Shown one piece after another: positions 2,214 to 22,700 of a stretch of 36,126 bases of DNA. The position numbers were made by a program, and so were the translations under genes. Within the stretch, counting starts at the first letter, position 1, and each line of letters begins with the position of its first letter. The stretch is taken from positions 1 to 36,126 of IMG/VR virus record IMGVR_UViG_3300003541_000008; one strand, given 5' to 3'. Under the pieces are notes generated by a model. The model saw only the letters and a list, made by a program, of their open reading frames with translations. It was not told the origin of the DNA and did not search any database. Source of the stretch: a virus (taxonomy: Duplodnaviria > Caudoviricetes).

Positions 2214-2441
2214 ATGACTAACGAACATATTACGAAGATAAAGAGCATCAGGGAAGAACTGTTCCCCGCGTCATACGGCGCTTATACAGCAGAGCAGACA
2301 AGGGCCGCCCTGGATGTCTACGAATTTTCTCTCAAGGCCGAAGGCGTGAGCGAAATAGAAGAAACTCTCGGGCAACTGGCGCCGCTGCTCACGGTGTTTA
2401 TTGAGGGCCTGACGGAAGCAGCCAGCGCCAAGAAGCCCTAA
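2214..2441 (+). CDS. Hypothetical protein (75 aa)
   Basis: GAGGT RBS; stop overlaps the convergent terL stop. Confidence 0.7.
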   Translation: MTNEHITKIKSIREELFPASYGAYTAEQTRAALDVYEFSLKAEGVSEIEETLGQLAPLLTVFIEGLTEAASAKKP

Positions 2442-3898
2442 CCCGCCCAACTTGAAGCGCGCCGCGCGTCATGCTTTTTCTTGATGACGCGGCGCTCCGA
2501 ATTCGTGGCGAAAGTGAGCAGAAAGCTGTCGGCCCTATTGGGCGACTTGACCCCACGGTTTTTCAGCTCCCGCTTGCTTTCGACCACGATTTTCCCATTC
2601 GCATGAAAGTCATAGCGCGGCGTTGTCAGCTCCGCGACCAACGCCTGATCGCTGGGCATGCCGCAATCACGCGCTTCGAACCATTCCCGCCCAGAGAACC
2701 ACAACTCATCTCGCAACCTCATGTAACGGTCATTCGAAGAGGCGGATTCCGCGACGTTGACGCCATAGAGCGGGAGCCCCTCCGTTCGCCCTATGTCGAC
2801 AAGGCCCGCGCCCAGGCCGATGGCGTCGACCATGATTTTCTTTGGGCGATCGAGCTCCGGCGTATCCAGATATTCGCGCTTGATTTTGCCCAGTGTCACG
2901 GCAAGGTCGACGCCGCCCCATGTCTGCACGGGCTCTGTGATCATATTGAACCGGCGCTTGCACAGAGCGTTGTCATCGTCTCCGTAGCGCGCCACGTCAA
3001 GCCCCCACACGGGGATATAATCAGTAAGTTCAATCACATCCCGCTTGATTGCGGCCTCAACCAGATCAAGCGCTATCACCGTGTCGTCGTCGGCCGTGGG
3101 GAACTCGCCCAGGACGCGCACGCGGTATTTGTTGGAGCCCTTGCCGTAAGCGTCAATCACATCCTGAATGTGGCCCCTGGCGCGGGGGACATCCTCTGAA
3201 TTGACAGTCAGGCAGCGCCAGCGATCGCGAAGCTTATGATGTGTGTCGTAAAAATAGCCTGACGTGCGCGTGGGGTTGGCCGCCAAAATTACTTTTGCGC
3301 CCTTGGTCGACAGCGCGCCCATGGCGACTTCAAAAACCACGTCATCGATTCCGCTGGCCTCTTCAATGATGAAGAGCAGATTGTCCGCGTGAAAGCCTTG
3401 AAGCGCCTCAGAGTTCTGCTTTGACGCCGTCCGGCGCACGGCGAACGCGTTATCAGGCGCGACGCGGACCACGATTTTTTCCGCCTGGATATCGATCTGA
3501 TCACGAAGCGCGGGCGGCAATCGCCGCCACCATTTTTTGACCTCCGGCCAAACGATATCGCGCAGCTGATCCTGTGAATTGGCCGCCACAGGAATCTTTA
3601 CGTCCTGGCGCGTCAGGAGAAACCACAGGATAACCCACGATAGAAACGTCGTTTTTCCAGTTCCGTGGCCGGATTTGATGCTGATCCGGTCATATTTCGC
3701 CAGATCATCGAGCGCCCCGGCCTGCCATGCGGAAAGCTGGGGCTCATCGTTGGGGTTGGGAACGCCCAGATCCAGGACGCCCAGGACGTTGACTACGAAC
3801 AGGCGCGGATTGTCTTTGCCCGCCAACCATCCCCATTGCCAACTGTTGCGGGGGACTCTGAAAACTTGCTCCTGCCCTGGGCCAACCGTCCCCCTCAT
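2438..3898 (-). CDS. terL: Terminase large subunit
   Basis: Walker A SGHGTGKT, Walker B-like FIIEEASG, coupling motif ANPTR, RNase H-like nuclease motifs GLDVARYGDD, VDAIGLGAG, SPNRAD. Confidence 0.95.
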   Translation of the reverse strand: MRGTVGPGQEQVFRVPRNSWQWGWLAGKDNPRLFVVNVLGVLDLGVPNPNDEPQLSAWQAGALDDLAKYDRISIKSGHGTGKTTFLSWVILWFLLTRQDVKIPVAANSQDQLRDIVWPEVKKWWRRLPPALRDQIDIQAEKIVVRVAPDNAFAVRRTASKQNSEALQGFHADNLLFIIEEASGIDDVVFEVAMGALSTKGAKVILAANPTRTSGYFYDTHHKLRDRWRCLTVNSEDVPRARGHIQDVIDAYGKGSNKYRVRVLGEFPTADDDTVIALDLVEAAIKRDVIELTDYIPVWGLDVARYGDDDNALCKRRFNMITEPVQTWGGVDLAVTLGKIKREYLDTPELDRPKKIMVDAIGLGAGLVDIGRTEGLPLYGVNVAESASSNDRYMRLRDELWFSGREWFEARDCGMPSDQALVAELTTPRYDFHANGKIVVESKRELKNRGVKSPNRADSFLLTFATNSERRVIKKKHDARRASSWAG

Positions 3899-4692
3899 TC
3901 CACCGCGCTCCAGTTCGCCAGCGTGACAGCAAGGCGAGAGACAGCGTCCGGCGGCGCGCTGGAAAGCGTATTTTCCAGCGCGTCGAGGCCCTCTAAGAGC
4001 CGCCTGGATTCTTCGCGATAGTCGATGGCGACAGGCTGGGCCTCTTGCTTATCGCCCATGGTTCGCGCCGCGACAAACGAGCGTAACGCTATGTTGGCGA
4101 AGCCGTCCGCCAGCAACTCCAGCCGCTTCCTGGAGTCCCTCTCTCGGGAAAATTCGTGAGAGGCCCTGTTCTGGGCGGAGAGCAGATCCTCTAAGAGGCG
4201 CTTCAGATGCGGCGCGGCGTCGATAGACCGGCAAAGCTGGCGGACGGCGGCCCCCGGCGATGGCCGCGCTGCGCCCTCTTGGGCCTCCGGGTATTCGCGC
4301 TCCGCCAGGACGTCGACCATGTTGCGCGGCTTGAATGGCGCCGTCGTCGACGCCGGGGGGCTGGCGCGGCCGTAGCCGTGCGCGTCATAGGTCACGGTCT
4401 GCAGGGGCTTGGCGGCGTCGCACGCAGCCACGACAGCGGCGGCGAACGCAGTGAACGCGCGCCGCTCCATCTCTGGGAGCTCCACCCAGAGCGGCGGGGG
4501 GCAGGCGCAGCATTCTTGATCAGCACAGCTATCATGCTCCGAGCTGGCCATGGCCGCGCCCAGCGCGCTGAATCCTTCCTGGGCGAGGGCCTCTAAAAAT
4601 GAGGGCGGCGCATCGTGGGCAGGCGCTATTTGGGCGTCAGGCTTTCGGGCGGCGGCGACTGCATCGGCGATGGATATGGGCGTGTCAGTCAT
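3895..4692 (-). CDS. Hypothetical protein (265 aa) between terS and terL
   Basis: ATGA coupling at both ends; Cys cluster CADQECCAC followed by a WVELPE helical motif. Confidence 0.75.
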   Translation of the reverse strand: MTDTPISIADAVAAARKPDAQIAPAHDAPPSFLEALAQEGFSALGAAMASSEHDSCADQECCACPPPLWVELPEMERRAFTAFAAAVVAACDAAKPLQTVTYDAHGYGRASPPASTTAPFKPRNMVDVLAEREYPEAQEGAARPSPGAAVRQLCRSIDAAPHLKRLLEDLLSAQNRASHEFSRERDSRKRLELLADGFANIALRSFVAARTMGDKQEAQPVAIDYREESRRLLEGLDALENTLSSAPPDAVSRLAVTLANWSAVE

Positions 4693-4787
4693 GGCGAAGG
4701 GACTCCAGACAGTTTGATAAGGGCGATAATCGCCAAGACGGCAAAAATCAGCGCGCCTTTGGCGACGGTTGAGAAATACGGCGTCAT
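4689..4787 (-). CDS. Single-TM micropeptide (32 aa, not in ORF track)
   Basis: MTPYFSTVAKGALIFAVLAIIALIKLSGVPSP; one base separates it from the upstream stop, and it ends in an ATGA overlap with the next gene. Confidence 0.6.
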   Translation of the reverse strand: MTPYFSTVAKGALIFAVLAIIALIKLSGVPSP

Positions 4788-4788
4788 G

Positions 4789-5091
4789 TCAGCAACCCCC
4801 AAACCAGCGGCGCCAGAAGGGGAGCGCCGCGCGTTCTGCCGCGCGCAGGTTCATGGCGATTGCGCGTTCTTCCTGGGCGACGGCCGAGCGCGTGGTGAGG
4901 ACGGCGCGGGCGACAGCGCGCCATTTGTTTTTTGCCGCGTCGCTTTCGTCCAGCCAGCTGGAGGGCTTTTCTTCGCCCTCATAGCGGAGCGCCTCCATCC
5001 ACGCCTCCCTGGCGCAGACGTCGACGACGCGGCGCGTCTTTTCTTCACGCTCTGATTCACTCTGTTGCATGGTGAGCTCCTTTGTTTTCAC
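4789..5091 (-). CDS. Hypothetical protein (about 93-100 aa)
   Basis: Overlaps the terS stop; AAGGAG RBS also supports the internal MQQ start. Confidence 0.7.
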   Translation of the reverse strand: MKTKELTMQQSESEREEKTRRVVDVCAREAWMEALRYEGEEKPSSWLDESDAAKNKWRAVARAVLTTRSAVAQEERAIAMNLRAAERAALPFWRRWFGGC

Positions 5092-5726
5092 TTTGGTTCG
5101 TTATTGTCTTTCGATTCGTCGTCATCTTCAGGAAGTACAACAGCGCCCTTTGCGACGGCGCTCCACAAAGCCGCAAATCCTTCGTCAGCTTTCATCGTTA
5201 CAGTCTTCTGCTCTCGCCAGTCATCTGGAAATCTACATGACATTGAAGTCTTCCAAACGTCTCCTTTAAATATGGCTTCTCTTATACCGCTGCTGCCATT
5301 ATCTTCCCACCACTGCTGTGAAAGTAGTTTTGCTCGCGCGTAAGCTTCCCTGAAGCTTTCGTAAGCATCGGACCATCGTTCAAGGGACATTTTAGAGCAT
5401 CCGATTTCTGCCGCCATCCATGCCGCAGATTTACCGCGTGCGCCCCACGCTAAAACCCACTCATCAAATCTTGGGCTATACTCTGGAGGCCGCCCAATTG
5501 GCTTAAGTCTGTCAGGATTTCTTGGCAAACCTTCATTGTGATCGTCGAAATAAAAATCAGGACTGTTTGTCACAATCCCTTGTCTTACGTCGCTGGAGCC
5601 TTTCGACGGCATGGCCTTCTCCCCCCGCTTGCGACTCGCGCGCGGCCGTCCAGGCGCGCCAGTCCCAGGGCCTTCTTTCTTTTTACTGGGGCCCTTGGCG
5701 CGTGGTTTCACTTTTTTTGCGTCCAT
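5088..5726 (-). CDS. terS: Terminase small subunit (212 aa) with long basic N-terminal extension
   Basis: GRPPEY..HTH (GKSAAWMAAEIGCSKMSLERW)..FREAYARAKLLSQQWWE signature; AGGAG RBS supports start at 5726; same operon as terL. Confidence 0.85.
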   Translation of the reverse strand: MDAKKVKPRAKGPSKKKEGPGTGAPGRPRASRKRGEKAMPSKGSSDVRQGIVTNSPDFYFDDHNEGLPRNPDRLKPIGRPPEYSPRFDEWVLAWGARGKSAAWMAAEIGCSKMSLERWSDAYESFREAYARAKLLSQQWWEDNGSSGIREAIFKGDVWKTSMSCRFPDDWREQKTVTMKADEGFAALWSAVAKGAVVLPEDDDESKDNNEPK

Positions 5727-5739
5727 GCGAATCTCCTGC

Positions 5740-5768
5740 TTTACAATGGCCGAAAACCCCCCTATAAG
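5740..5768 (+). promoter_or_regulatory. Early sigma70-type promoter P1
   Basis: TTTACA-17 bp-TATAAG; 16-bp core TTTACAATGGCCGAAA identical at 10731 and 15290. Confidence 0.8.
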
Positions 5769-5806
5769 AGAGGGACAGGCAGCAACAAACAATCGGGAGC
5801 CATTAC

Positions 5807-6184
5807 ATGGTGAACCATTCAAAAGCCCTCACAGTCGAAGTTCTCCCCAACACGCACATGTTTAGCGTATCCGCCCGCACAATCCGCGAAGGATGGCGCG
5901 TAGGAGACTTTTATATAATAGCCTCTGACGTTTGCGGCAAAGAATGCTTTTTTGTGACGGAGGCCGTGGCGTTCGATTGTTTCGGCGCTCATGTGCAGAT
6001 CATCAGCCGCCCGTTCAAATCGTTTCGCGACGCCCACAAAATCGCCGTGTCGTCCGCCCGCGCCCTGCGCCGGGAAATGCGCGAGACTGGGCCGCTCCTC
6101 CCTAGCGCAATCAAGTCAATGCTGCGCTCGCTCGTCACACATCAGACAATCACCACAAAGGCCGGCGCCCGCGCAGCGCGATAA
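5807..6184 (+). CDS. Hypothetical early protein (125 aa)
   Basis: GGGAG RBS; first gene after P1. Confidence 0.65.
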   Translation: MVNHSKALTVEVLPNTHMFSVSARTIREGWRVGDFYIIASDVCGKECFFVTEAVAFDCFGAHVQIISRPFKSFRDAHKIAVSSARALRREMRETGPLLPSAIKSMLRSLVTHQTITTKAGARAAR

Positions 6185-6256
6185 TCGCCCAGGGGGAGCT
6201 AAGGCGCTCCCCCAACCCACCACGCCACCACGCCATAGAGAATAGGATTGTTCAAC

Positions 6257-6469
6257 ATGGACAAATATCGAGTGGACATATTCGCAAAAGGCGAAAGACA
6301 TATCGTAAGTTTTGAACGGTTCGGCGAAAACGCCGCTGATGTTGCGAAAAGTGTTGTCGCGCAACTTGGCGCGCAATGGAGCCCGTTTGTTGAGGATACT
6401 GATGGCAAAGACAGCGTCATTATTTTTCGCTCAGCTGAAATTGAGTTCATAAAGGCGACAAAGATATAA
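6257..6469 (+). CDS. Hypothetical protein (70 aa)
   Basis: AGGA RBS; ORF track frame. Confidence 0.65.
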   Translation: MDKYRVDIFAKGERHIVSFERFGENAADVAKSVVAQLGAQWSPFVEDTDGKDSVIIFRSAEIEFIKATKI

Positions 6470-6509
6470 CTCTTCTACGCGCAGAACTAATTTGCAAAGG
6501 GATTTAGAA

Positions 6510-7097
6510 ATGACGTTTATTCCAGACAGGCTAAACACATCTGATGAACGCGCCCTTAACGCCGCGCTGTGGCGCTTGCTGGCGCGGGGATGGAGCCACA
6601 AGCGCGCTGTAGCCGCGCTCCTGATCGCGTGGAATGAGGATTACCACTCAGAAGACGGACTTGTTGAACGCGCTCTGGATATCCCGGATGAAGACGCAGG
6701 CAAGACGCCAGGGGCGGACATTTACGCCGCCGCCGCTGAAGCATGGGGCCTTTCTCGGGGTGATGCGAAGGCGCGTCTGTGCTGGAGTCTTTACGGGAGC
6801 GGGCCTACGCCGCTCAAATCCTCAACCGAACAGCCAGCCCCCCTTGAGATCGGCGTGACGCCGTCCGTAGCGATAACCGGAGTCACAAAAAATGAAGCCA
6901 AAATGGTGAGAACCAGACTTCGCCGCGCGGGCCTCCTGTCCTTCTACCGCGTCAACGACAAATCCGTGAACATGTTCACGACGAAAGAGGGCGCGGCGAA
7001 AGATCGCGAGACGCTTATGTGCGTGTTGGAGACAGTCAGAGCGGCGATCGCGCAGCGCAAAGAGACGCGAATCAAGGGGTTCTTCGAAGACCCCTGA
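6510..7097 (+). CDS. Hypothetical protein with polymerase O-helix-like segment
   Basis: DIYAAAAEAWGLSRGDAKARLCWSLYGSG matches R-x3-K-x7-YG. Confidence 0.7.
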   Translation: MTFIPDRLNTSDERALNAALWRLLARGWSHKRAVAALLIAWNEDYHSEDGLVERALDIPDEDAGKTPGADIYAAAAEAWGLSRGDAKARLCWSLYGSGPTPLKSSTEQPAPLEIGVTPSVAITGVTKNEAKMVRTRLRRAGLLSFYRVNDKSVNMFTTKEGAAKDRETLMCVLETVRAAIAQRKETRIKGFFEDP

Positions 7098-7150
7098 CGC
7101 GCGAATAGCCTAAGCCAGCATGCCGCAACGCCAACAAGAAAGAACACGCC

Positions 7151-7666
7151 ATGAGAGACGAAGCGCCTAAAGACCCATACATGGAATATGCAACGCGTCA
7201 CGGGATAACGCGCGCCAAGGCGAAAGCTGAAATGCTGGCCATGATGTACGGCGTGGAGCCAGAGACGTTGTCCCTGGCGCAGAAGCTGGCGGCCATGAGC
7301 GACGATCGCCCCTGGGCGGAGCTCAATGCGGAGAAGCGCGCCACGTCCATTTCCGAAGCTAAAGCGGCGATAGACGCCGGAGAAGCATTCAAGGACGGCG
7401 AAACGCGAGTCAAGGTCCTGTTGCCCAGAAGCAGCGCCTGCGGCGCAGTCCCCGCCGTCGTATCCGCTCTCCGCGAAATAACGGACGCTGGCGTCATCAA
7501 TGACGCGTCCGCGATTGAAGTTCGAATCGGAGGTGTCTCCTCCGTAACAGTGCTTGTGTCGCGGCGGAGCGGAAAAAGCGAAATGTGGGGTCCGGCCCCG
7601 TGGCCTGTCGCCTTTGTCATCGACGCCGTCGCCAACTGGGCAATCAGAAAGGACCCGAAGCAATGA
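7151..7666 (+). CDS. Hypothetical protein with N-terminal O-helix-like segment
   Basis: DPYMEYATRHGITRAKAKAEMLAMMYG; ATGA overlap with next gene. Confidence 0.7.
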   Translation: MRDEAPKDPYMEYATRHGITRAKAKAEMLAMMYGVEPETLSLAQKLAAMSDDRPWAELNAEKRATSISEAKAAIDAGEAFKDGETRVKVLLPRSSACGAVPAVVSALREITDAGVINDASAIEVRIGGVSSVTVLVSRRSGKSEMWGPAPWPVAFVIDAVANWAIRKDPKQ

Positions 7667-7932
7667 AGCCGATCAAGGAGCTGATCAAAGAAAACCGCGC
7701 GGTGTGGCTCGCCTGGGCGGCCTGTGGAGGGGCGGAGCGCGAAGCGTGCGGCCTAACGCTGTCAGAGGAGCAAAAAGCTGTGGCGCACGCGGCGGAGCTG
7801 TCAGACGGCAAATTGCTCATGGCTTACCAGGAGGCGTTGCGCCGCCCTATGGATGATCCAGAGGGCCTCGCCCAGGCGGAAGCCTATTTGAAAATCCCGA
7901 AACGCATGCGCAAAGGGAGTAGGGCCGTATGA
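7663..7932 (+). CDS. Hypothetical protein (89 aa)
   Basis: ATGA overlaps at both ends; AAGGA RBS. Confidence 0.7.
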   Translation: MKPIKELIKENRAVWLAWAACGGAEREACGLTLSEEQKAVAHAAELSDGKLLMAYQEALRRPMDDPEGLAQAEAYLKIPKRMRKGSRAV

Positions 7933-8312
7933 GCTATTATCTTATTCGCGCCACATACAACACAAGCGCCAATTCAAAAAGCCTGTCTTCGTACACTGTC
8001 AGCATGCAAAAGACAGATGGCGCTGATTATTGCTATAGCTGCCAAGACGGCCCCACGTTTAACAATATATCCGCATGGGTATGCGCGACTGCGTCATTCC
8101 AAGACGCAATTAATAAAATTCTTGACTATTTAAACTTTCCGGTTGACGTCATGCTTAAATGCATAGACGGAAAACCGTATACCGTATTCTTGAGCCTTAT
8201 CGACGTAAAGCACAAGAACGGCCTTGGCGAAACGCACCACTTGCTAGGGCGGGTTACCCCGCATGGCCGGTGGATTGCGAACAACGGCAACGAACTTTTT
8301 GGAGAGGGGTGA
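7929..8312 (+). CDS. Hypothetical protein (127 aa), visibly AT-richer
   Basis: GGGAG RBS; ATGA overlap. Confidence 0.7.
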   Translation: MSYYLIRATYNTSANSKSLSSYTVSMQKTDGADYCYSCQDGPTFNNISAWVCATASFQDAINKILDYLNFPVDVMLKCIDGKPYTVFLSLIDVKHKNGLGETHHLLGRVTPHGRWIANNGNELFGEG

Positions 8313-8315
8313 ATC

Positions 8316-8738
8316 GTGGCGGACCCAACACAGACAGCTATTTCCCTTCTGGCGGTAAAGTTGGCGGAAGCCTGTTTCACAATGGAATGGAACGCTCTCC
8401 CAGAGCGCGTTCGCTCTGCCTACCGATCGAAGGCCGTGCATCTGCTGGCGACGTCGGAAAACGAAGGATTCTCCGCTCGGGTTAATGTGACGTTGCCACA
8501 GGCGACGGAGACGCTTAAAGACATCATCAGCGGAAATCTGGAAAACCTTTTGCGGGCTCGAATATTCGGGTCCAATCCAGAGGCGCAGACCTTCGTACAT
8601 GCTGGGTATTATGCAGTTTACGTTGTTATGCGAAATAACGTCACACTGAAGCAGAAGAGCGCAGCCCCAGAACTATTTGACCTTATCGCCGGTAACGTCG
8701 AGGCATCACGACGTAAATACTACGACAGCTTGATATAA
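8316..8738 (+). CDS. Hypothetical protein (140 aa)
   Basis: GAGGGG RBS, GTG start. Confidence 0.7.
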   Translation: MADPTQTAISLLAVKLAEACFTMEWNALPERVRSAYRSKAVHLLATSENEGFSARVNVTLPQATETLKDIISGNLENLLRARIFGSNPEAQTFVHAGYYAVYVVMRNNVTLKQKSAAPELFDLIAGNVEASRRKYYDSLI

Positions 8739-8755
8739 AACTAGGAGACAAACAC

Positions 8756-9187
8756 ATGGTTGATAAAACTATTACCCTGCTTAGCGGTGAACGCGTAGTG
8801 ATAAGCGACGATGGGGAAAGCGTCTTGCTGGGCCTCATAGACAAGAAAGGCGTTGCGCCCCTAGTGGTCACGCTTACGAGGGAGGAGGCGCTGAAGATAG
8901 CCGCTGTCCTCCTGAGCATGAAGGAAGATGACGTTCAGGAGGCGAAAGACTGGGAGACGCACGCGAGCCATGATGTAGAGCTCTTGGAAAAAGCGGCGTA
9001 CTACGCCTATCGCCTTTTGGTGGCGGGGCCCTTTCCGTGGACTCTCCTTAGCGAGGACGCAAAGAAAATGTGGCGGGGGAACGTGCTGGCGGACGATCCG
9101 TTTAAAAAAGATATCGCCGAAGCACAAAATGCAACTCGCAAAAAGGATATCGCGCAGTTACTGAAAAATCTTCACACGTCAGCCTGA
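8756..9187 (+). CDS. Hypothetical protein (143 aa)
   Basis: AGGAG RBS. Confidence 0.75.
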   Translation: MVDKTITLLSGERVVISDDGESVLLGLIDKKGVAPLVVTLTREEALKIAAVLLSMKEDDVQEAKDWETHASHDVELLEKAAYYAYRLLVAGPFPWTLLSEDAKKMWRGNVLADDPFKKDIAEAQNATRKKDIAQLLKNLHTSA

Positions 9188-9202
9188 AGAAAGGACCCTT
9201 CC

Positions 9203-9445
9203 ATGCGCAATGCCCATGAGCGCCCATGCTTCAGTATCGAATACCTGTTCAAACCTGATGTGTGGATTCGCATAACGACAGATGAAAGCATTGCAGGGGC
9301 GAGGTTCAGCGCGGCGTTCTACCGGAACAAGGGACGGACGATTCGCGTCCTGGGGCCCAACGGCGGAGAAGTCCCCGAAGAGCTTCTAACCCCGACGCCT
9401 GAAGAGGCGGCCACGATAAAAAAGGGCGCATATTCATATAGTTGA
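9203..9445 (+). CDS. Hypothetical protein (80 aa), paralog of 10177..10443
   Basis: AAGGA RBS; shared FS(I/V)E and GR..R(V/I).GP.GG blocks. Confidence 0.75.
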   Translation: MRNAHERPCFSIEYLFKPDVWIRITTDESIAGARFSAAFYRNKGRTIRVLGPNGGEVPEELLTPTPEEAATIKKGAYSYS

Positions 9446-9457
9446 GGTGGATAAGCG

Positions 9458-9676
9458 ATGAAAGTATCCGGTGTTTATTGCTGCCCCTGCGGCGTCGAAA
9501 CAGAGTGCGGCTGGCATGATCTGGACGTGGGCAAGGTGATGCAATGCCCGGAGTGCAAGGCTGTTTATGGCCATGTCCGGCCGCGATGGGGAGGCTCCGT
9601 GTGGGTTCGGATTTCTAAAAAAGACGTCAAATTTCACGAGCTGCTAAGAGAGCCCGCAGAGGAGGGCGAAGAATGA
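9458..9676 (+). CDS. Small zinc-ribbon-like protein (72 aa)
   Basis: CPCG...CPEC cysteine pairs; GAGGTGG RBS. Confidence 0.7.
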   Translation: MKVSGVYCCPCGVETECGWHDLDVGKVMQCPECKAVYGHVRPRWGGSVWVRISKKDVKFHELLREPAEEGEE

Positions 9677-9888
9677 AAAAATTCAGCCTTTACATTGAAG
9701 TTTTCGGGACAGTTTACGCCGGAGACGTTGAAGCGGAGACAGAAGAGGAGGCCATAGCCATAGGGAACACGCGCACGCCGTCTGTCAGCCTATGCCATCA
9801 ATGCTCTGGCAAATTCTGCGATAGCCTTACCTTGGGCAAAACGTCTGCAGAAGAACAGGAGAAGGCGGATGAAGACGCAGCACTTTAA
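9673..9888 (+). CDS. Small acidic protein with VEAETEEEA motif and CxxC
   Basis: GGAGG RBS; ATGA overlap. Confidence 0.7.
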   Translation: MKKFSLYIEVFGTVYAGDVEAETEEEAIAIGNTRTPSVSLCHQCSGKFCDSLTLGKTSAEEQEKADEDAAL

Positions 9889-10180
9889 GTTCGCCCAGGG
9901 GGAGCTGATCACCATGACGAAGGCCCTCATAGACGATCCGGAGTTTGACGCGTTCGCCAGGGAGATAGTCTCCCTGGCGGCGGAGGCCGGAAAGACAGGC
10001 GGTCCACAGCGCCGGACGACTGACAACTACCACATATCCGCCTACCCCCTGCCCAAGAAGGCGGAGCATATAGGCTGGCATATGCAACGCAATGGTCGGA
10101 TGTTCGCCGTTGGCCACGTACAGCTGAAAAAGGGGGAGCGCCCCACAAGGGTGGCGGACGAAGCGGAGAAGACGGCATGA
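9869..10180 (+). CDS. Hypothetical protein (103 aa)
   Basis: Overlapping, co-oriented gene string. Confidence 0.65.
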   Translation: MKTQHFKFAQGELITMTKALIDDPEFDAFAREIVSLAAEAGKTGGPQRRTTDNYHISAYPLPKKAEHIGWHMQRNGRMFAVGHVQLKKGERPTRVADEAEKTA

Positions 10181-10443
10181 CAGGAAAATGGGAGTTCCCC
10201 CCGGCGAATGAGAGTTTCAGCGTTGAGACTTTCGCGGCGCCCGGACGGTTCATAGTGGCGGCGCGGGCAAGAGAGTTGAGCCGCGCCGCCCTAACGGCCA
10301 AGTACATGAAAAGCCAAGGGCGAAGAGTCAGGATTGTTGGCCCAATGGGCGGCGTGCTGGACGCGGAGCTGTGGGAGACGCCGCTTACGGAGAAAGAAAA
10401 AGAGCTCCTTGGCCAGTCCATCATGCGGAGAATAGGCCCGTGA
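10177..10443 (+). CDS. Hypothetical protein (88 aa), paralog of 9203..9445
   Basis: GGAG RBS; ATGA overlap. Confidence 0.75.
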   Translation: MTGKWEFPPANESFSVETFAAPGRFIVAARARELSRAALTAKYMKSQGRRVRIVGPMGGVLDAELWETPLTEKEKELLGQSIMRRIGP

Positions 10444-10724
10444 GGAGAATCCCCCGCGCCGACGAAATAGAAATTCGCCGCCTGATTGGCGGAAGCCGAC
10501 GCATGCAGCGTTTGAGCACGAGTCAAAAAGCAAATCTTGTGCAGATCCTTAGCACTCGCTACGAGGCCCCATGCTGGGCTATCCGCAGTCTCCTGAATCT
10601 GATCGATCTGGAGCGCACACAGGACCTTGCGGCCGTCGACGGCGACGCTCCGCCAGAGCCCTCCGTTTCCTGGGCCGAGCTCCGCGCGGCGATGGACGGC
10701 GATAAGGTTTGGCGCAAAAAATAA
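10440..10724 (+). CDS. Hypothetical protein (94 aa)
   Basis: GTGA overlap and GGAG RBS place the start at 10440. Confidence 0.6.
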   Translation: MRRIPRADEIEIRRLIGGSRRMQRLSTSQKANLVQILSTRYEAPCWAIRSLLNLIDLERTQDLAAVDGDAPPEPSVSWAELRAAMDGDKVWRKK

Positions 10725-10730
10725 AATCGC

Positions 10731-10759
10731 TTTACAATGGCCGAAACAGGCGCTATAGC
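10731..10759 (+). promoter_or_regulatory. Early sigma70-type promoter P2
   Basis: TTTACA-17 bp-TATAGC with an A-rich upstream tract; same 16-bp core as P1 and P3. Confidence 0.8.
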
Positions 10760-10805
10760 TATTTTCAGAGACGAGAAACATCAAGCCATTACATGGTGAG
10801 ACAAA

Positions 10806-11135
10806 ATGACCAAAACCACAAAGACCCCCTCCGCAAAAGCCACCCGCGAAGATCGTTCCGCAGTCATGGCCGCCGCTCACGTCTTTTTCAAAACAACGGG
10901 TTTGCCATGGGGGGTCTGCCAATTGGCCGCCTGGGAAAACTGGCGCCTGAAGAAGTTCGAAGAACTGCGCCTCGCCCAGGAGGCGGCTAACGCCGCCAAC
11001 GGTTCCATGGTCGACAAATCGTTGTATTCGATCGTGGCTGATCCCTATCGCCTGAAGGATGAGGCGCGGCGTATGGCGGCGGACGGGGCGTGGTGGCTGG
11101 TGTACGAGGCGATGCGCATGAAGAGCGCCGCCTGA
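10806..11135 (+). CDS. Hypothetical early protein (109 aa)
   Basis: GGTGAG RBS; first gene after P2. Confidence 0.75.
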   Translation: MTKTTKTPSAKATREDRSAVMAAAHVFFKTTGLPWGVCQLAAWENWRLKKFEELRLAQEAANAANGSMVDKSLYSIVADPYRLKDEARRMAADGAWWLVYEAMRMKSAA

Positions 11136-11144
11136 TGAAACAAC

Positions 11145-11166
11145 GGCCCAGGGAGCTCCCTGGGCC
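11145..11166. repeat. Perfect 22-bp palindrome
   Basis: GGCCCAGGGAGCTCCCTGGGCC, intergenic. Confidence 0.9.
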
Positions 11167-11187
11167 CCACATGGAGGATGCAAGCCG

Positions 11188-11688
11188 ATGGTGAGCGAAA
11201 ATGATTTTATGGAAGCGTCAGAGGATGAAGAGGAGCGCGAAGACGGCGGGATTTGCTGGAATGTGTATTTTAAGCGAATCCGCGTAGCCCTGAGGATAGA
11301 GGCTAAAGACGTCGTTGGCGTTTTTGAATTCGCGCCTGGGCCACTGATCACGGCGAACATTGTGCACCGATGGGGGCTTGGATCGCATCAGTTGAAATAC
11401 CGTCCTATGACGCTGTTGGACTTCGACAGGTTTACACAGGGATTGCCGTCGTATGTTGCACGGAGAAGCCTAACAGAGGCCCGTGCAGAGGAAGAGCGAA
11501 GAGCGGCGGAGGAGCTGTCCGCGCGGCGCAAGGCGTCAGCCCAGAAGCGCAAGGATACGATAGCGGCTAAAAAGGCGCAGGCGATTACGTCGGAAGCGCG
11601 CCAAGCATGGGTTGCATCTCTGGAGGCGGCGGAAGAGCTGGAGGAGGCGGAGAAAATAGCAAATGAGGAGATGGAGGAGGCAAAGTAA
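11188..11688 (+). CDS. DUF1456/YehS-like HTH protein with charged coiled-coil tail
   Basis: NVYFKRIRVALRI..DVVGVF...W.....KYRPM....DRFTQGL resembles the YehS repeat; GGAGG RBS. Confidence 0.55.
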   Translation: MVSENDFMEASEDEEEREDGGICWNVYFKRIRVALRIEAKDVVGVFEFAPGPLITANIVHRWGLGSHQLKYRPMTLLDFDRFTQGLPSYVARRSLTEARAEEERRAAEELSARRKASAQKRKDTIAAKKAQAITSEARQAWVASLEAAEELEEAEKIANEEMEEAK

Positions 11689-11721: not shown

Positions 11722-11757
11722 AGGCCGGTTCCGTGCAGGGGTCCGGCCTTTTGTTTT
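11722..11757 (+). terminator. Intrinsic terminator ending the middle plus-strand island
   Basis: AGGCCGG...CCGGCCT stem followed by TTTGTTTT at a convergent junction. Confidence 0.75.
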
Positions 11758-12113
11758 CAGACGGCCTCAAGGACGGATATGCTCCAGTCTGGGCCAAACT
11801 CAAAGCTTGCTTTGTCCCGAAGCGTTGGGGAATCCGACGTCGCCGCGACGCTCCTATTTGACGGATTAATTTCGTAGTGGACCGTTTTTCCAGATTCCAC
11901 TTCAACGTGGAGCACGCTTGATCCTTTGGGGGCGTTGGCGCGAGTGGACGATACAGCGGCGCCCGTGGACGCCGTCAGCGTCTGTTTTCCCAGGTAGGGT
12001 TGTTTAAGAAAAAACACAGAATCCGTGGAGAACCGGCCGCCCCCACCCCCTGCGGCAACCTTGGCTGATGTGATTCCGTCATGCGTAAAAATGCGTACTG
12101 TCGCCGTCATCAT
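11757..12113 (-). CDS. Small putative virion protein, paralog of 13809..14156
   Basis: Shared blocks VRIF, TDSV, LKQPYL, ASTGAAVSS, EFG..W..SVLEA; GGAG RBS. Confidence 0.8.
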   Translation of the reverse strand: MMTATVRIFTHDGITSAKVAAGGGGGRFSTDSVFFLKQPYLGKQTLTASTGAAVSSTRANAPKGSSVLHVEVESGKTVHYEINPSNRSVAATSDSPTLRDKASFEFGPDWSISVLEAV

Positions 12114-12122
12114 GGGCTCCTA

Positions 12123-13799
12123 TTATATCTGGTATAGGTTCCCGTTAACCTGCAAATACAGAACTGGCCTGTTAGCAGTCAAAACAAGATTTGCACCAGA
12201 TGAGTTAACAAAATGACCTGCCCCGGCAGCAGGGGCGGCGTCGTGTTGAATGGTTATGTTGCCAGTTGTCGCCACGATAGACACTAAAAAGCTAAGCGTC
12301 TGATCCACGCAAGCCCCAGCGGCGGCGGTTATGGTAGTGGGTGAGGAGTGCGTAAGCTGATAGAAATTTGCGTATCCCGCAAGAGTCGTTCCCGTCGCCT
12401 GAACAAGTTCTTCCTGATGGAGGCCGCTAAAGTGGCGGGTTCCTACTGAGTTGGCGTCTCCAATCTGCAACCTGTTGTCCGAGTAACCGCGAACAGGGAC
12501 GTCAGGAGTCACGGTTCCGCCGCCGAACTGAAGCCGCCCGCTTTGCCAATCAATCCTGAAGAATTTGCCTGCTGTGACAGAGGCGTACTCATAAACATTG
12601 CCTGCGCCAGCATCGCTCACAAACACGTCAAACGGGCCGTTGAAAGTGTTGAATGAGCCCCAGCCGCCTCTGACATGGTTGTTATCCGCCCCAGACAAGA
12701 ACGTGATAAATCCAGCCGTTGCGTGGCCGCCTTCGAACCGGCAATTTATGAAGTCGTTGCTGTCGCTGGCGCAGCTAATGGCCAAATTAGTTACTGCGCC
12801 CATTTCCAGATTGACGCCAATATAGGTATTGTTATTTGATTCGTTTCCCTCGGATAGAATTTTCCAACTCGGATCAACAGTCGTATACGCGCCATCAACC
12901 CGAATGGAACCGCCAAGGAACTGATTTTGGTTTACGCCCCAGGACGCCTGGGGAAGGAGGTGAATACCAATCTTATTGTTGATCAGCCTCCCAAGGTAGA
13001 AATTATTACAGACAATATTTGCGGAAACAGTGGATGAATCAAGAAGTAGCCCAGTGCAAAAGAAGGCTATCCCAGGTATCCAAAACTCACAGTTCTGCAT
13101 TCCTCCAGTGATGCGAACGCCAACTGACGTTGTGTCAACGCTGGAATACCACACAGGCGTGGCGTTAGAGCCTTTAAATACGGCTGGCAGCTTGTACTGT
13201 CTGCCGTAAAACATATTTGCGCCGCCAAGCGTCAGACTGCTCTCAATAAGCAGCGCCGTTCCTGTCCCGTCATAACGCAAAAGCGCGCCGTCATCGGCGT
13301 ACACGGCCACATTCGCCGTAAGCGTTATCGTTGTCGTGCCTGTGTAGTATTGCCCATAGGGTATCCAGATAGAGCCATAATTGAGCGTGGCCGCCGCCGC
13401 GATGGCGTTGGTGATGGCCACCGCGTCATTATCCGTATTATTCCCATAAGCGCCAAACGCCTTAACGTTCAGGCGGCCGTTGGTGAGCTGTATCTCCCAC
13501 CACGCGCCATCAAGAGACTGGACCTTTCCAGCGTGCGTCGGTTCGCTCACAACGCGCTTATACAGCGCGTCTCCGCCGTCGCCCGCCGTTCTATACCCCG
13601 ACGTTTGAATGGCGTTGGCGGATAGCGGAAAAGACAGTGCCGCCATACTCGCCCACGTTACCGCCAGCGCGGCGCCGCCCATGGTGAACAGGGCGTCGAT
13701 CGCGCTTTGAATATCCGTGTGCGGGATGTTTGTGGAGGGCGCAAACGGGAGATGACTCGCCTCTGGGCGAAACCCGATATCAGTTGCAACTGCGGACAT
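12123..13799 (-). CDS. Tailspike / depolymerase-like protein with pectate-lyase-type beta-helix
   Basis: GYRTAGDGG..DGAWWE module, then NVKAFGAYGNNTDNDAVAITNAI..WIPYGQY beta-helix cap and Asn-rich ladder. Confidence 0.85.
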   Translation of the reverse strand: MSAVATDIGFRPEASHLPFAPSTNIPHTDIQSAIDALFTMGGAALAVTWASMAALSFPLSANAIQTSGYRTAGDGGDALYKRVVSEPTHAGKVQSLDGAWWEIQLTNGRLNVKAFGAYGNNTDNDAVAITNAIAAAATLNYGSIWIPYGQYYTGTTTITLTANVAVYADDGALLRYDGTGTALLIESSLTLGGANMFYGRQYKLPAVFKGSNATPVWYSSVDTTSVGVRITGGMQNCEFWIPGIAFFCTGLLLDSSTVSANIVCNNFYLGRLINNKIGIHLLPQASWGVNQNQFLGGSIRVDGAYTTVDPSWKILSEGNESNNNTYIGVNLEMGAVTNLAISCASDSNDFINCRFEGGHATAGFITFLSGADNNHVRGGWGSFNTFNGPFDVFVSDAGAGNVYEYASVTAGKFFRIDWQSGRLQFGGGTVTPDVPVRGYSDNRLQIGDANSVGTRHFSGLHQEELVQATGTTLAGYANFYQLTHSSPTTITAAAGACVDQTLSFLVSIVATTGNITIQHDAAPAAGAGHFVNSSGANLVLTANRPVLYLQVNGNLYQI

Positions 13800-13808
13800 G
13801 GGGGCCTC

Positions 13809-14156
13809 TTACGATGCTTCTAGGACGGACAGAGTCCACCTATGACCAAATTCAATTATCGTCGCGCCTGTGAATTGGGGCGACGCCGCCGTTGCGACGA
13901 CGCTCCGCCCAGGAGGATTGACTTCAATATGCGCCGTCTTCCCGGCCTGGACCTGGATTTGGAGCAGCGCGGCCCCCGCGTGGCCCGTAGCGGCCGAAGA
14001 TGAAACGGCGGCGCCCGTGCTGGCCGCCAGCTGCTCCCCAGCAAGATATGGCTGCTTTAAGACGTGCACAGAATCTGTGACGGGGCGGCCTGACGCCGAC
14101 ACCGACATAATGGTGACCAATCCACCGTATGCAAAAATTCTAACAGCTGCCGCCAT
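13809..14156 (-). CDS. Small putative virion protein, paralog of 11757..12113
   Basis: Full-length similarity to the 118-aa gene; GGGGA RBS. Confidence 0.8.
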   Translation of the reverse strand: MAAAVRIFAYGGLVTIMSVSASGRPVTDSVHVLKQPYLAGEQLAASTGAAVSSSAATGHAGAALLQIQVQAGKTAHIEVNPPGRSVVATAASPQFTGATIIEFGHRWTLSVLEAS

Positions 14157-14323
14157 TTGGCGTTCCCCGCTTAAGTGTGGCTTCGCTTTTTCTAATCTAT
14201 ACCGGCCGCCCAGACGGGCGCTCTGCGCGCTGTCCCCCGGACTGGATAGGAAAGACTCAGCGCAACGCCGTCAAATGGCAAGTACATCGCCCACAGAACG
14301 GCCATGGGCGGTGTTTGGTGTTT

Positions 14324-14461
14324 TCAGCACTTATCCCCGCCGCCAGACTTAGGCCCCGTCTTTGGCCCCCCAAACCCGCCTGATGAGCCAGCGCCTTTGC
14401 CGCCCGACTTTCCGCCTGATTTGCCGCCCGACTTTCCGCCTGATTTGCCGCCCTTGGCCAT
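14324..14461 (-). CDS. Basic Gly/Lys/Ser peptide (45 aa) with GGKS repeats
   Basis: MAKGGKSGGKSGGKSGGKSGGKGAG...; GGAG RBS; repeats use alternating synonymous codons. Confidence 0.65.
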   Translation of the reverse strand: MAKGGKSGGKSGGKSGGKSGGKGAGSSGGFGGPKTGPKSGGGDKC

Positions 14462-14590
14462 AGCATAAACTCCGATCCTGGATTCGTATTGAATATTCAG
14501 CCCTTGCACCATAGCGGAGGGAGGGGCGCTTTTCTACTGTTGGCGGACGGGCTCCTGAGAGGAAGTTGATCCTCCGCCCAGGGATGGCGG

Positions 14591-14698
14591 CGGTTTGGAG
14601 CAAACCAAAGCGGTTTGGAGCAAACCAAAGCGGTTTGGAGCAAACCAAAGCGGTTTGGAGCAAACCAAAGCGGTTTGGAGCAAACCAAAGCGGTTTGG
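14591..14698. repeat. Tandem array, 5 exact copies plus a partial copy of CGGTTTGGAGCAAACCAAAG
   Basis: Read directly; each unit contains the inverted repeat GGTTTG-GAG-CAAACC; no spacers. Confidence 0.95.
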
Positions 14699-14699
14699 T

Positions 14700-15290
14700 T
14701 TTTGGCTAAGCTGTTGATGCGCCTGTACCTTGCCCAGGGCGGCCGTGGCGCTGTGGCCGAAATGCAACGAAAATGGCCTCCCCGCGCTCCAAACGATCCA
14801 CGGTTTTTGCAATCGTTCTCTCTATAGAAACACATATAGACTATAGTATACACCCCCCTATAGACCTTAGTCTAATACGTTTCCCCCTCTACATAAATTC
14901 ATAACGTGGATCATGTGGATGGGTATATATATCAATAAGTTAGTTTGGATTTAGAGCCAAATCACCCCCCAAAAGTGTGGATTGTTTTCCATAACTCGTG
15001 GATCAAACCAAACCAATCCCCAAAACCAAACCAAATCGCTCCAAACCAAACCCCAAAACGCGCCAAAACCCCTCTGCGGAGCGCCCCTAAGCCCCCTCTG
15101 GGCGGGTCAAACATGCATTAGACTTTAGATAGTGACGTTAACGTCAACTCGTGGAGCGTTTGGAGCAAAACCACGAAAACCCCCCATCCGCTCCAAACCG
15201 GCGTGGTTTGGATCACGCCAAACGCTCCAAACCGGCGTGGTTTGGGTCACGGCCGCCGCCCCTTACCCGCGCATTAGACTTTTGGTTAGT
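14700..15290. other. Non-coding origin-like or packaging/terminus region
   Basis: AT-rich core, IHF consensus match at 14930-14942, five (C/T)GTGGAT boxes, C/A-skewed tract, palindrome at 15133-15146. Confidence 0.55.
15189..15251. repeat. Two 29-bp direct repeats with internal CCAAACC/GGTTTGG inverted repeat
   Basis: CGCTCCAAACCGGCGTGGTTTGG(A/G)TCACG at 15189 and 15223. Confidence 0.9.
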
Positions 15291-19776: not shown

Positions 19777-22700
19777 TCACCGCGTCGCCCTGCGCGGGAT
19801 AAGATCAGCGAATGTTATCCTAACACCCTGTCCGATAACAGGGGCCTGCTCTGGCGTAAGGTCTGCGAAATCAATTCGCCCAGAGGGCGCTCCGGCCATG
19901 CCGCCCGCGACAGGAAGAAGATCATGGAACCGAATCAGCTCTGGGTCGCGATACCGGCCGCCGACGTCTCCGCTGTACATCCCTCCGAAAATGTCGCCGA
20001 CGTTTTCGGCGCCACGGTTGACGAGCGCTTTTTTCGTGCGCTTGAAGAACTCTCGGACGCGGTCAAACGCCGCCGCCGCTTCTTTTGGGACGGCCGCCGC
20101 GTCGCGGTTGACAGCGTAGTCAGCGTAAGCGTGATCTATGGCCTCTTGGAGGATAAGCCCCTCAACGTCCGGCGCATGGCGGTAGGCAGCGCGATATCGG
20201 GCGGAGTCGGCCTCCCCAATGTACTTTTCAATCCAGTTCTCTTTAACAGCCGTCTGGCGCAGAAGCGCATTTTGCTGCGGCGACAGGAGATCAAGGCCGT
20301 TCGGCCCCATCGCATGCGCGGATTCTTCATGAAAAACGCGCATCGGGTCCGCAGCGCTTAGCGCAATCCCGATCGTGCGTTGGCGGCGCGACCAATAGCC
20401 GTCCAATTGCGCCTCTCCGCCACGCTTATTGTAGAGCGGCTGTCCTCCTAGGATCGCTTCACGCATCTGCGGGGTGATGTCTATGGTTTTCAGGACAGGC
20501 GCAGGCTTAAGTTGCCTGTCAACGAACGCTTTTGCTTCAGCTGATAGGCCCCGGTACGCCTTATCTGGATAGCCCCACCGGGACTCCCCTGCTGCGTCGT
20601 CCAGCTCATCAAGGATGTGTTGCGGAGCGTCGCCGCGCATGGCGTCGCGTGTGGCCGCCTCGAAGTCGTCGCTTGTCAGCTTATCCCCCAGATCATGAAT
20701 AGGCTCCTCCGTGACCTTTCCGCCCCACTTCGCCGTATACTTTGCAAAAAACGCCGGAGTCCGATCCTCATACTGAAGCTGCATTCCTAGATTGGCCGCG
20801 CCGCCCTCTGGCATGGCCTCCTTTTGCACGCGCCCATGCAGCTCCCCCGGCGCGGCCGTTTCCCACGCCGACGCATGTGACTCAATCGGAATAGCCTGCA
20901 AAGGGTTCATTCTCCCCATGGCGAGGTCATAGCGGACTGATTCAGCGGCGGGCGCTCCGAACTTCTTCGCTATGAACGCCAGCGCCGCCGTATGGCCGCC
21001 CTGCGGATCGCCCTTCAGCTCTATCGTCTGTGCTTTTTCTGTCTTGTCGTCCGTGAAGGGTTCGCCGTTTTTATCCTTGGGCGTCAGCACGATGTTATTG
21101 TCTACAGCGCTCCAGTCGAGCTCTGATATGCGTGGCGCGCCTACGGCGTCGCCGATCATGCGCGCCTTGGGCAAGACGATCGTGTCATAGCCGTTTTCAA
21201 CTGCGTGGCGGAGCGCCAGCTTAAGCCCAAGGTCCAGCCAGAGGCCGCCTTTGTAGGGGATATTCAACATTTTGTCTGTTGGAAGCTCTGGTACTGGAAA
21301 TTCGGCCTCTACTTTATTAAGTGCGTCATAGGCTTCTACGCGTTTTTTTAGTATTTTCGCCATTATTTTAAACTGTCTTTCTGGGATACAGCTTAAAAAC
21401 TCAGTCGCGACCCAAGTTGAATACTGCTCTTCATGAGGAGCCCACTTATCGACGTTTCTTTTTCCGAAGCGCTCAATATTGAATTCTTGCGGGGTCGGAA
21501 TTTCGACAGGCTTTCCAGTCCCCGCGCGCTCTTCCATAATGCGAACGAGCCCCCCATAATCCCCCTGAAACATCGGGGCTACCCTTTTACGCATATGCTC
21601 CTCTTTAGCCATGACGTTTTCCATCATTCGTTCATAAAGAGCGCCGTTGTTATAGTTGTATGCGTCATCCAGTTTTCTAATCGCCTCCAGAGGAGCTTTG
21701 CGCGCCTCTGCGCGCCTGTCCGCCGCCTTTTGGAACGCCTGTTTCGCCGCCTCCCTCTGGGCAAGCGTCTCATATCCCCTGTCTTCTCCAAGGGCGTGCG
21801 CGTCAGACTGCGTTTCTTCAATCAGGAGGCCCTTGCGCGGCTTAGTTTGCCCAGGGAGCGGCGGTAGGTCGACCTCTCCAAGCCTTTGATGAATAATTTC
21901 GTGCGTCTCAAAGTGTTTTGATGTATACCGCCCAATCAGATGCTTAGGCTTCACGAGAATTTCAGCCATGTATCGAGCTCCGGGGATTATATATTCGTGA
22001 AATTTCGTCCCCACGGAGGAGAAATCGTTTATCCCCTGCGCGCCTTCCGGTATGTCGTCCGGCCTTTCCATGTCTATAACTTCGTTGGCTGCTTCGTCGT
22101 GCAGCTTTTGCGCCGCGTCGAGCGCCTCATTTTGATAATGGTACTGATCAGCCTCAACAGAATAAGAGCTTGGATTTGTTGAGAATACGATGGCGTTTTC
22201 GTATTTCTCGTGAGCAATAACAACAGGGTTAATATAGTCCAGCCGTGGGAAAGCGTCAGACTTCACAATATCGACGGTGAACCCCATCTTATGCATGTCT
22301 TCGAGTGTCGGGGCTTTTTCCATGTTCCCCGACGCGTCAGCAAACCCGTTCTCCTCCAACAGTTCCCAGATGTGGTTATTGTCTGTAAGCGCGCTGATCA
22401 TTTCATCAGGCGAAACAGCCGCCGTTACCTGCGCCATGCTCCGCGCCTTGCTGATGTCAAAACTGCTGTCAAGCTCGTCTCTCCTATCCTCCTCCCAGGC
22501 GCTGTTGTTCGGCTCCTGATAGTCGTTTTCTTCGGGCGGAGCGTCAGGCCCCCGCAACGTGACAAGGTCAAGGTCCACGTCGGCCGCGTCAACGTAGGCT
22601 TTCAGCGCCGCTTTGCTGACCTTGCCCTTTTCGTCCGCCAGCTGCTTCAGCGCGCCGTCGATATCGACATAGTCGCGCCAGTCCTTCGTCACGCCAGGAA

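Follow-up and report, generated by a model that had tools for sequence, protein, structure and literature searches.

A 27-residue module resembling motif B of family A DNA polymerases in small non-polymerase phage proteins

Two neighbouring phage genes each encode a peptide with the spacing R-x3-K-x7-YG preceded by D-x-Y, a pattern that in polymerases belongs to the fingers (motif B), and the locus raises the question of where these peptides came from and what they could do outside an enzyme. An earlier note on this DNA had read them as an excised fingers segment, reused as a binder of nucleotides or nucleic acids or as a decoy for defences that sense phage polymerases.

The two genes and their setting

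The window (the whole stretch of DNA analysed, 36,126 nucleotides) is the entire linear virus record G000, with an estimated completeness of 57 %, and PHROG matches gave it a podovirus-like layout. Two wetland metagenome runs (X4 and X5) contained near-identical pieces of the record, and a soil run (X7) contained relatives. The relevant features are as follows.

2438-5822, minus strand: terminase large and small subunits (PHROG)
5807-11688, plus strand: cluster of small ORFs between the terminase and tail genes
6510-7097, plus strand: ORF A, 195 aa, with a helical N-terminal part (1-66), module A (70-96), a linker and a C-terminal alpha/beta part (about 118-192)
6510-6707, plus strand: N-terminal part of ORF A, optional among relatives
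6717-6797, plus strand: module A, PolA-like helices N and O (D70, Y72, R83, K87, Y95, G96)
6861-7085, plus strand: C-terminal alpha/beta part of ORF A, of no family, also present in the relative P0010
7151-7666, plus strand: ORF B, 171 aa, with module B at the N-terminus, then an unrelated C-terminal part without family
7172-7252, plus strand: module B, PolA-like helices N and O (D8, Y10, R21, K25, Y33, G34)
After 11688 to the record end, minus strand: tail, ejection and head genes (PHROG)

Neither ORF A nor ORF B matched a Pfam or PHROG family. From their homologues and substitution patterns both look like real genes. Four homologues were found for ORF A and three for ORF B, and comparison with L007, the sole DNA homologue, gave dN/dS values of 0.32 over 193 codons of ORF A, 0.14 for residues 55-171 of ORF B and 0.20 for module B (five synonymous and four non-synonymous changes; one pair only). 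The modules were identical to those of L007 at 26/27 and 25/27 residues, and the C-terminal parts at 37/68 and 68/117. Scans of viral and genome contigs yielded no homologues of ORF A or ORF B, and an iterated word search returned nothing beyond its own inputs. P0010 begins at the module and thus lacks the N-terminal part of ORF A, and one X7 contig joins position 6516 to 6713, a weak hint that this part is optional. The two genes are indeed neighbours; their description as early proteins follows solely from their position in the small plus-strand ORF cluster. A model of the whole of ORF A (pLDDT 58) had no fold match in the viral library at E ≤ 0.001. Separately, Atlas structure rows for the C-terminal part of ORF B (7260-7666) resembled the HPF/RaiA (S30AE) fold with TM 0.46/0.55, which is below the bar for naming a family, Atlas feature matches at or under 0.9 being taken as leads only.

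The pattern R-x3-K-x7-YG occurred twice in the six frames of the window, both times at the modules on the plus strand, where the earlier note had placed it behind D-x-Y, compared with 0.345 occurrences expected from 200 shuffles. Modules A and B aligned without gaps over 27 residues, sharing D, Y, A, G, R, A-K-A and Y-G. The local score between ORF A and ORF B was 49 (p = 0.013, 2000 shuffles) and fell to 26 (p = 0.54) when the modules were masked, so that the remainders of the two proteins are unrelated, as had been claimed. At the DNA level the modules were identical at 33 of 81 bases, and the copies therefore do not stem from a recent duplication.

The reported absence of palm aspartate motifs also held. 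Motif C was found in none of nine proteins comprising ORF A, ORF B and homologues (p 0.17-0.97; control PolA p = 0.005), and no catalytic Asp of motif A was found in ORF A (p = 0.44). A motif A-like stretch at residues 114-130 of ORF B (p = 0.01) was taken as chance; it is lost in all three homologues. The D44-D70 spacing of ORF A and an Atlas row for its residues 113-184 against a PF00476 protein (TM 0.30) had also suggested a mini-polymerase, eroded but still containing motifs A, B and C; this reading was rejected because P0010 lacks both Asp residues, hhalign covers the module alone and PSSM scores were at chance. The term 'stand-alone' is apt in that both copies lie outside any polymerase, but each is fused to other domains.

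The window contig, which is 57 % complete, yielded no DNA or RNA polymerase. The whole PF00476 domain had no match there at its curated cut-off (the control matched in 10 of 14 genomes), nor did phrog_17; PF00940, for T7-like RNA polymerase, likewise gave no match, in a search whose control also matched nowhere. Among 27 records with related terminases (seven of them at least 90 % complete but with terminases only 27-34 % identical), none carried the module or a PolA. No RNA holder was listed, and a function is known for none of the neighbouring genes in the window.

Carriers of the module and its ancestry

A profile search of 1.84 billion representatives at E ≤ 0.001 returned 20 proteins, namely ORF A with two relatives, a complete PolA, 13 unrelated non-polymerases (53-309 residues) and three repeat proteins. 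The last three (P0014, P0026 and P0027) lack the Arg and were dropped as a different family. The repeat proteins contain several dispersed two-helix repeats close to module B, one residue shorter before the final Tyr-Gly, and belong to no clear Pfam family.

Further carriers were found in cultured phages. In GenBank genomes these were ORFs of 50-188 residues in Vibrio phages 11895-B1 and 1.121.O, T4S1, Klebsiella KpS8, Cronobacter GAP31, Aeromonas APT65 and Zuko. All seven exceeded the best of 200 shuffles (4.9-27.9 versus 1.5-5.3 bits) with A10, a profile built solely from non-polymerase carriers and including none of the seven; many Mydovirus genomes matched the module likewise. The carrier from Streptomyces phage Zuko is new: gp59 (L198:987-1553, minus strand) is a hypothetical protein of 188 residues with the O-helix half in mid-protein. 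Neighbours of the GenBank carriers included an NMN transporter, a dCTP deaminase with a reductase, and a pyrophosphohydrolase with thymidylate synthase.

The same module occurs near the N-terminus of the 50-130-residue ORFs of phrog_16320, a family of unknown function found in Vibrio 11895-B1, T4S1 and probably Mydovirus/Seunavirus. Four of 19 aligned carrier segments matched this family. The window copies did not match it directly and are linked to it through P0010 (E 0.0011) and those four segments, with relatives at E 0.0011-0.2.

The arrangement of the module varied among carriers. P0010 contains A-type and B-type copies in one chain, ahead of the C-terminal part of ORF A, and in the ORF B homologue of L007 the O-helix has been copied in tandem (60 bases, near-identical), with all three changes non-synonymous. 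The order of motifs found in polymerases is reversed in two carriers, motif A following motif B in P0016 and the TGR motif following motif B in P0013. Judged from such fusion, duplication and the number of unrelated carriers, the module is mobile, and the proposal of a reused fingers segment is supported. P0009, a close homologue with K replaced by E and a truncated C-terminus, shows that the motif can decay. In addition, P0012, P0013, P0015, P0016 and P0022 are small patchworks of PolA motifs A, B and TGR, in non-polymerase order in two of them. A 106-residue ORF of a Bacteroides phage (BS162P1_00005, L180:2588-2908) ends in a long-loop, bacterial-type N-O fragment (PF00476 180-226, E 0.003), the phage's own PolA being of the short-loop type.

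The closest known counterparts are the short-loop family A polymerases (cyanophage KBS-P-1A PolA, actinophage NBR1-type PolA, Pol gamma and T7 gp5), in which D-x-H/Y, a D-to-R distance of 13 residues (T7: 14) and R-x3-K-x7-Y follow one another without gaps in two helices, as in the module; the equivalents in T7 gp5 are D504, H506, R518, K522, Y526 and Y530. The module differs from these enzymes in comprising only 27 residues, without motif A or C, thumb or exonuclease, and in its fusion to unrelated domains; in the window copies the residue at K+2 is charged, that at K+5 large and that at K+4 non-aromatic. Both segments very probably descend from helices N-O of a short-loop PolA, a judgement drawn from sequence comparisons.

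Standard profiles miss the modules, and tests not tuned to the segment were therefore used. One was an HMM built from 15 PolAs, which came from a spread ranking with T7 types added and had not been picked by resemblance to the segment. Searched against 29,631 six-frame ORFs, it placed four genuine polymerases on top, followed by ORF A and ORF B as the leading non-polymerases (iE only 1.1 and 3.1), and within the 839 ORFs of the window gave E-values of 0.032 (ORF A) and 0.087 (ORF B). Its matches fell at the motif B columns in both. In the reverse direction, A10 had five matches in 21 whole genomes, which were motif B of the cyanophage PolA (E 1.9e-4), three T7-type RNA polymerase O-helices (E 0.005-0.009) and Zuko gp59; it matched no HTH gene, and at E ≤ 0.1 it did not detect T7 gp5 or the DNA polymerases of 11 of the 12 spread PolA phages. 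When module A was compared with GenBank phages by tblastn, 19 records were matched (best E 0.3), of which 18 lay in one orthologous group of actinophage genes and 16 of these were annotated as DNA polymerase, the match in NBR1 being motif B of its polymerase. Matches in DelaGarza and an N4-like endolysin were judged spurious. Antibody frameworks dominated the PDB sequence searches, in one of which Pol gamma was the best single stretch (E 0.058).

The earlier note had left the donor as either a family A DNA polymerase or a T7-like RNA polymerase, and the first of these, in its short-loop form, was favoured. By hhalign, A10 reached 85 % over 32 columns with the cyanophage PolA and 23 % over 24 columns with T7 RNA polymerase (repeat protein P0014, 74 %). 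The O-helix of T7-like RNA polymerase (R627, K631, Y639) does resemble the module in its G-V-T-R-x3-K-x7-YG and was matched in three genomes, but the N-helix part with D-x-H/Y is unmatched. The hhalign values obtained with alignment A7 (95.5, 93.7 and 77 %) and the E-values of its HMM were disregarded, since three of the five polymerases in that alignment had been picked by the segments. No single ancestry test was significant at database scale; the tests, each weak and independent of the others, agree on an origin in the fingers of a family A DNA polymerase.

The alternative that the likeness to motif B is convergent, the module belonging to a generic helix-turn-helix-like peptide family unrelated to polymerases, is very unlikely. 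It would account for the close resemblance of P0014, P0026 and P0027 to module B without the Arg, and for database-scale E-values to PolA above 0.05. However, PolA motif A, which was no selection criterion, was present outside the module in three of the 13 unrelated carriers (P0012, P0016 and P0022; p = 0.003 each, the floor of 300 shuffles). P0013 showed motif A (p 0.03) and a TGR motif (p 0.01), and P0015 a weak TGR motif (p 0.07); neither motif was found in eight of the 13. In six of the seven GenBank carriers the residue two positions after the Asp is His, as in PolA, and four of the five whole-genome matches of A10 were polymerase O-helices.

The module is an undescribed reuse of a known subdomain and is not a polymerase. 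At abstract level, the literature search retrieved no paper on stand-alone O-helix modules, and supplementary target tables of Avs and anti-defence papers could mention such proteins. The nearest described case is divPolA1/divPolA2, an extra PolA-derived phage gene, of which divPolA1 keeps the palm and catalytic residues, in the portion of that paper available (PMC11348598), whereas the module has none. A reclassification of PolA, as excerpted, removed sequences shorter than 350 residues, so that the module falls outside it (PMC10201439).

Residue constraints and predicted structure

Residues were compared between carriers and 18 PolAs, with 23 of 24 carrier rows parsed; GAP31 gp238, which has W at the final Tyr, was dropped by the regular expression. 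Conservation of R, K and Y among carriers is circular, being forced by the profile and by this selection. Homologues did not keep R, K and YG without exception: P0009 has E for K, GAP31 has W for the final Y, and the G after Y was present in 11/23 carriers versus 16/18 PolAs. Among the remaining positions, D+2 was Y or H in 22/23 carriers and K-1 was Ala in all 23. K+2 was R or E in 19/23 carriers (Arg in 14) versus 0/18 PolAs, and K+5 was G or A in 3/23 versus 18/18. K+4 was hydrophobic in all carriers and aromatic in 12/23, the window copies having C (ORF A) and L (ORF B). An aromatic residue at D+5 was found in 15/23, and its combination with R/E at K+2 is a signature absent from PolA.

In polymerase structures the triphosphate is held by the His, Arg and Lys of helices N-O, K+4 stacks on the sugar and base, and a small residue at K+5 packs against the nascent base pair. 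As K+2 and K+5 have drifted while D+2, R and K have stayed, the inner packing faces appear to have drifted and the triphosphate face to have been retained. The helix pair may thus have adapted to life outside the enzyme, keeping its triphosphate face and losing its packing against the duplex.

That the modules are functionless or structural debris, pieces of PolA taken up by illegitimate recombination and persisting because they fold harmlessly, is highly unlikely. The patchwork and permuted PolA motifs would be expected of debris, as would the altered Lys and truncation of P0009 and the non-synonymous changes in the L007 tandem copy, and phages swap polymerases frequently, according to the accessible text of PMC11348598. 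Set against this are the near identity of both modules to those of L007 next to much more divergent C-terminal parts, the dN/dS of module B (from one pair only), and the signature at K+2 and D+5, which recurs across unrelated phages and implies long selection after excision.

Module B was modelled as two helices, 9-17 and 21-33, with a pLDDT of 85, and the module is predicted to fold as an independent helix pair. The model superposed on Pol gamma with an rmsd of 0.8-1.9 Å over 27-29 residues in six of the seven listed rows and 2.6 Å over 37 in the seventh, and none of its matches reached significance in the PDB, the viral library or the VIA-wide library (Foldseek E > 2.7; Z < 3 for VIA). HU, RHH and antitoxin chains also fitted it, with rmsd values of 0.7-3.5 Å (all insignificant), and canonical HTH regulators fitted at about 4-5 Å over 31-35 residues (all Z < 3). 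The comparison with the fingers is therefore compatible with the proposed fold but does not separate fingers from other helix pairs, and the fold searches would still allow a generic helix pair.

In a further possibility, rated as quite unlikely, the PolA-derived module would have become a small helix pair for DNA binding or dimerisation (RHH/HU/HTH-like), with DNA phosphates bound by R and K. The spacing A-x3-G-I-S/T-R, which resembles HTH and RHH patterns, was counted in its favour, together with the fit of HU, RHH and antitoxin chains, the change of K+2 to Arg in 14 carriers and weak HTH Pfam matches in two of 19 segments (HTH_AsnC-type, E 0.0042; HTH_Tnp_1, E 0.12), neither being a window copy. 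However, canonical HTH regulators fitted less closely, the module lacks a third helix or ribbon strand, no HTH gene was matched in the 21 genomes, and between 5700 and 11800 of the window no repeated operator-like site stood out and no meaningful repeats were seen.

Possible functions of the module

The explanation that we prefer, tentatively and with rather less than even confidence, is that the module is a non-catalytic accessory domain that binds nucleotide triphosphates, as the residues kept among carriers and the nucleotide genes close to the GenBank carriers suggest. A portable two-helix module taken from helices N-O of a short-loop phage PolA and fused to unrelated domains would grip the triphosphate end of nucleotides without catalysis, and might hold or sense nucleotides during infection. 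Since copies tend to come in twos, the module probably acts as a pair or oligomer. This explanation has weak points. The stacking position K+4 is C or L in the window copies and aromatic in only about half of the carriers, and two short helices without metal or palm would presumably bind weakly on their own. Motif A and TGR are simply the most conserved parts of PolA, and their permuted order in P0016 and P0013 speaks against the reconstruction of a pocket.

The main rival, unlikely in our estimate, is a decoy derived from PolA: the module would bind, without activating it, a host sensor (Avs19-like or aRES-like) that recognises family A polymerases of phages, and would be displayed by any small protein into which it is inserted. 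Such sensors have been described: the core polymerase domain triggers EcAvs19 irrespective of the catalytic Asp, in the excerpt of PMC13581612, EcAvs19 shows a preference for family A enzymes of phages over Pol I of E. coli, in the available part of PMC12803255, and aRES binds T7 DNA polymerase, as given in the accessible lines of an editorial (PMC13728456). The module is of the short-loop phage type, the carriers T4S1, 11895-B1 and Zuko have a PolA of their own, and duplication, arbitrary fusion partners and permuted motifs suit an epitope better than a pocket. On the other hand, the contig (57 % complete) showed no PolA or RNA polymerase and the 27 terminase-related records no PolA. Borvo escape mutations lie in the proofreading cleft and not in the fingers, according to the portion available of 10.1101/2022.08.27.505566. 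Further, Avs sensors recognise entire folds and the site at which Avs19 binds is unmapped, K+2 and K+5 differ from those of every PolA compared, which a faithful mimic might not allow, and long-loop host-like fragments such as that in BS162P1_00005 occur too.

A broader idea, conceivable though somewhat doubtful, is that phages keep a mobile kit of peptides taken from active-site motifs of their own PolA (most often motif B, also motif A and TGR), in any order and copy number, on small proteins, as decoys or nucleotide sponges against defences that sense polymerases or that deplete or signal with nucleotides.

Among many phages unrelated to one another, a 27-residue piece of a polymerase active site appears to have survived as a movable domain that Pfam does not detect. 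Nucleotide binding, as in the preferred explanation, would make it a natural triphosphate clamp of minimal size. Blocking of Avs19- or aRES-type sensors would make it an anti-defence protein of a new class and would show which epitope those sensors read. As cultured phages carry the module, both the binding and the decoy ideas are testable.

Several other features of the window were observed. There was no excess of promoters (one found versus 2.6 expected). A 29-base direct repeat at 5738-5766 and 10729-10757 (83 % identical) contains a TACAAT hexamer, and its second copy overlaps the sole sigma-70-like site found; it is possibly a shared promoter for the plus-strand cluster. Two ORFs on the minus strand, at 19777-25998 and 26008-28866, encode probable internal virion proteins of 2073 and 952 residues, without a confident PHROG family. 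The region 14300-15250, between tail genes, looks non-coding, with tandem repeats in ORF translations near 14350-14460 and 14570-14710 and further short repeats up to about 15250, and is a candidate origin or genome end. Paralogous ORFs of 115-118 residues at 11757-12113 and 13809-14156 (minus strand) lie on both sides of the tail spike gene at 12123-13799, which suggests a duplicated spike-plus-partner cassette.
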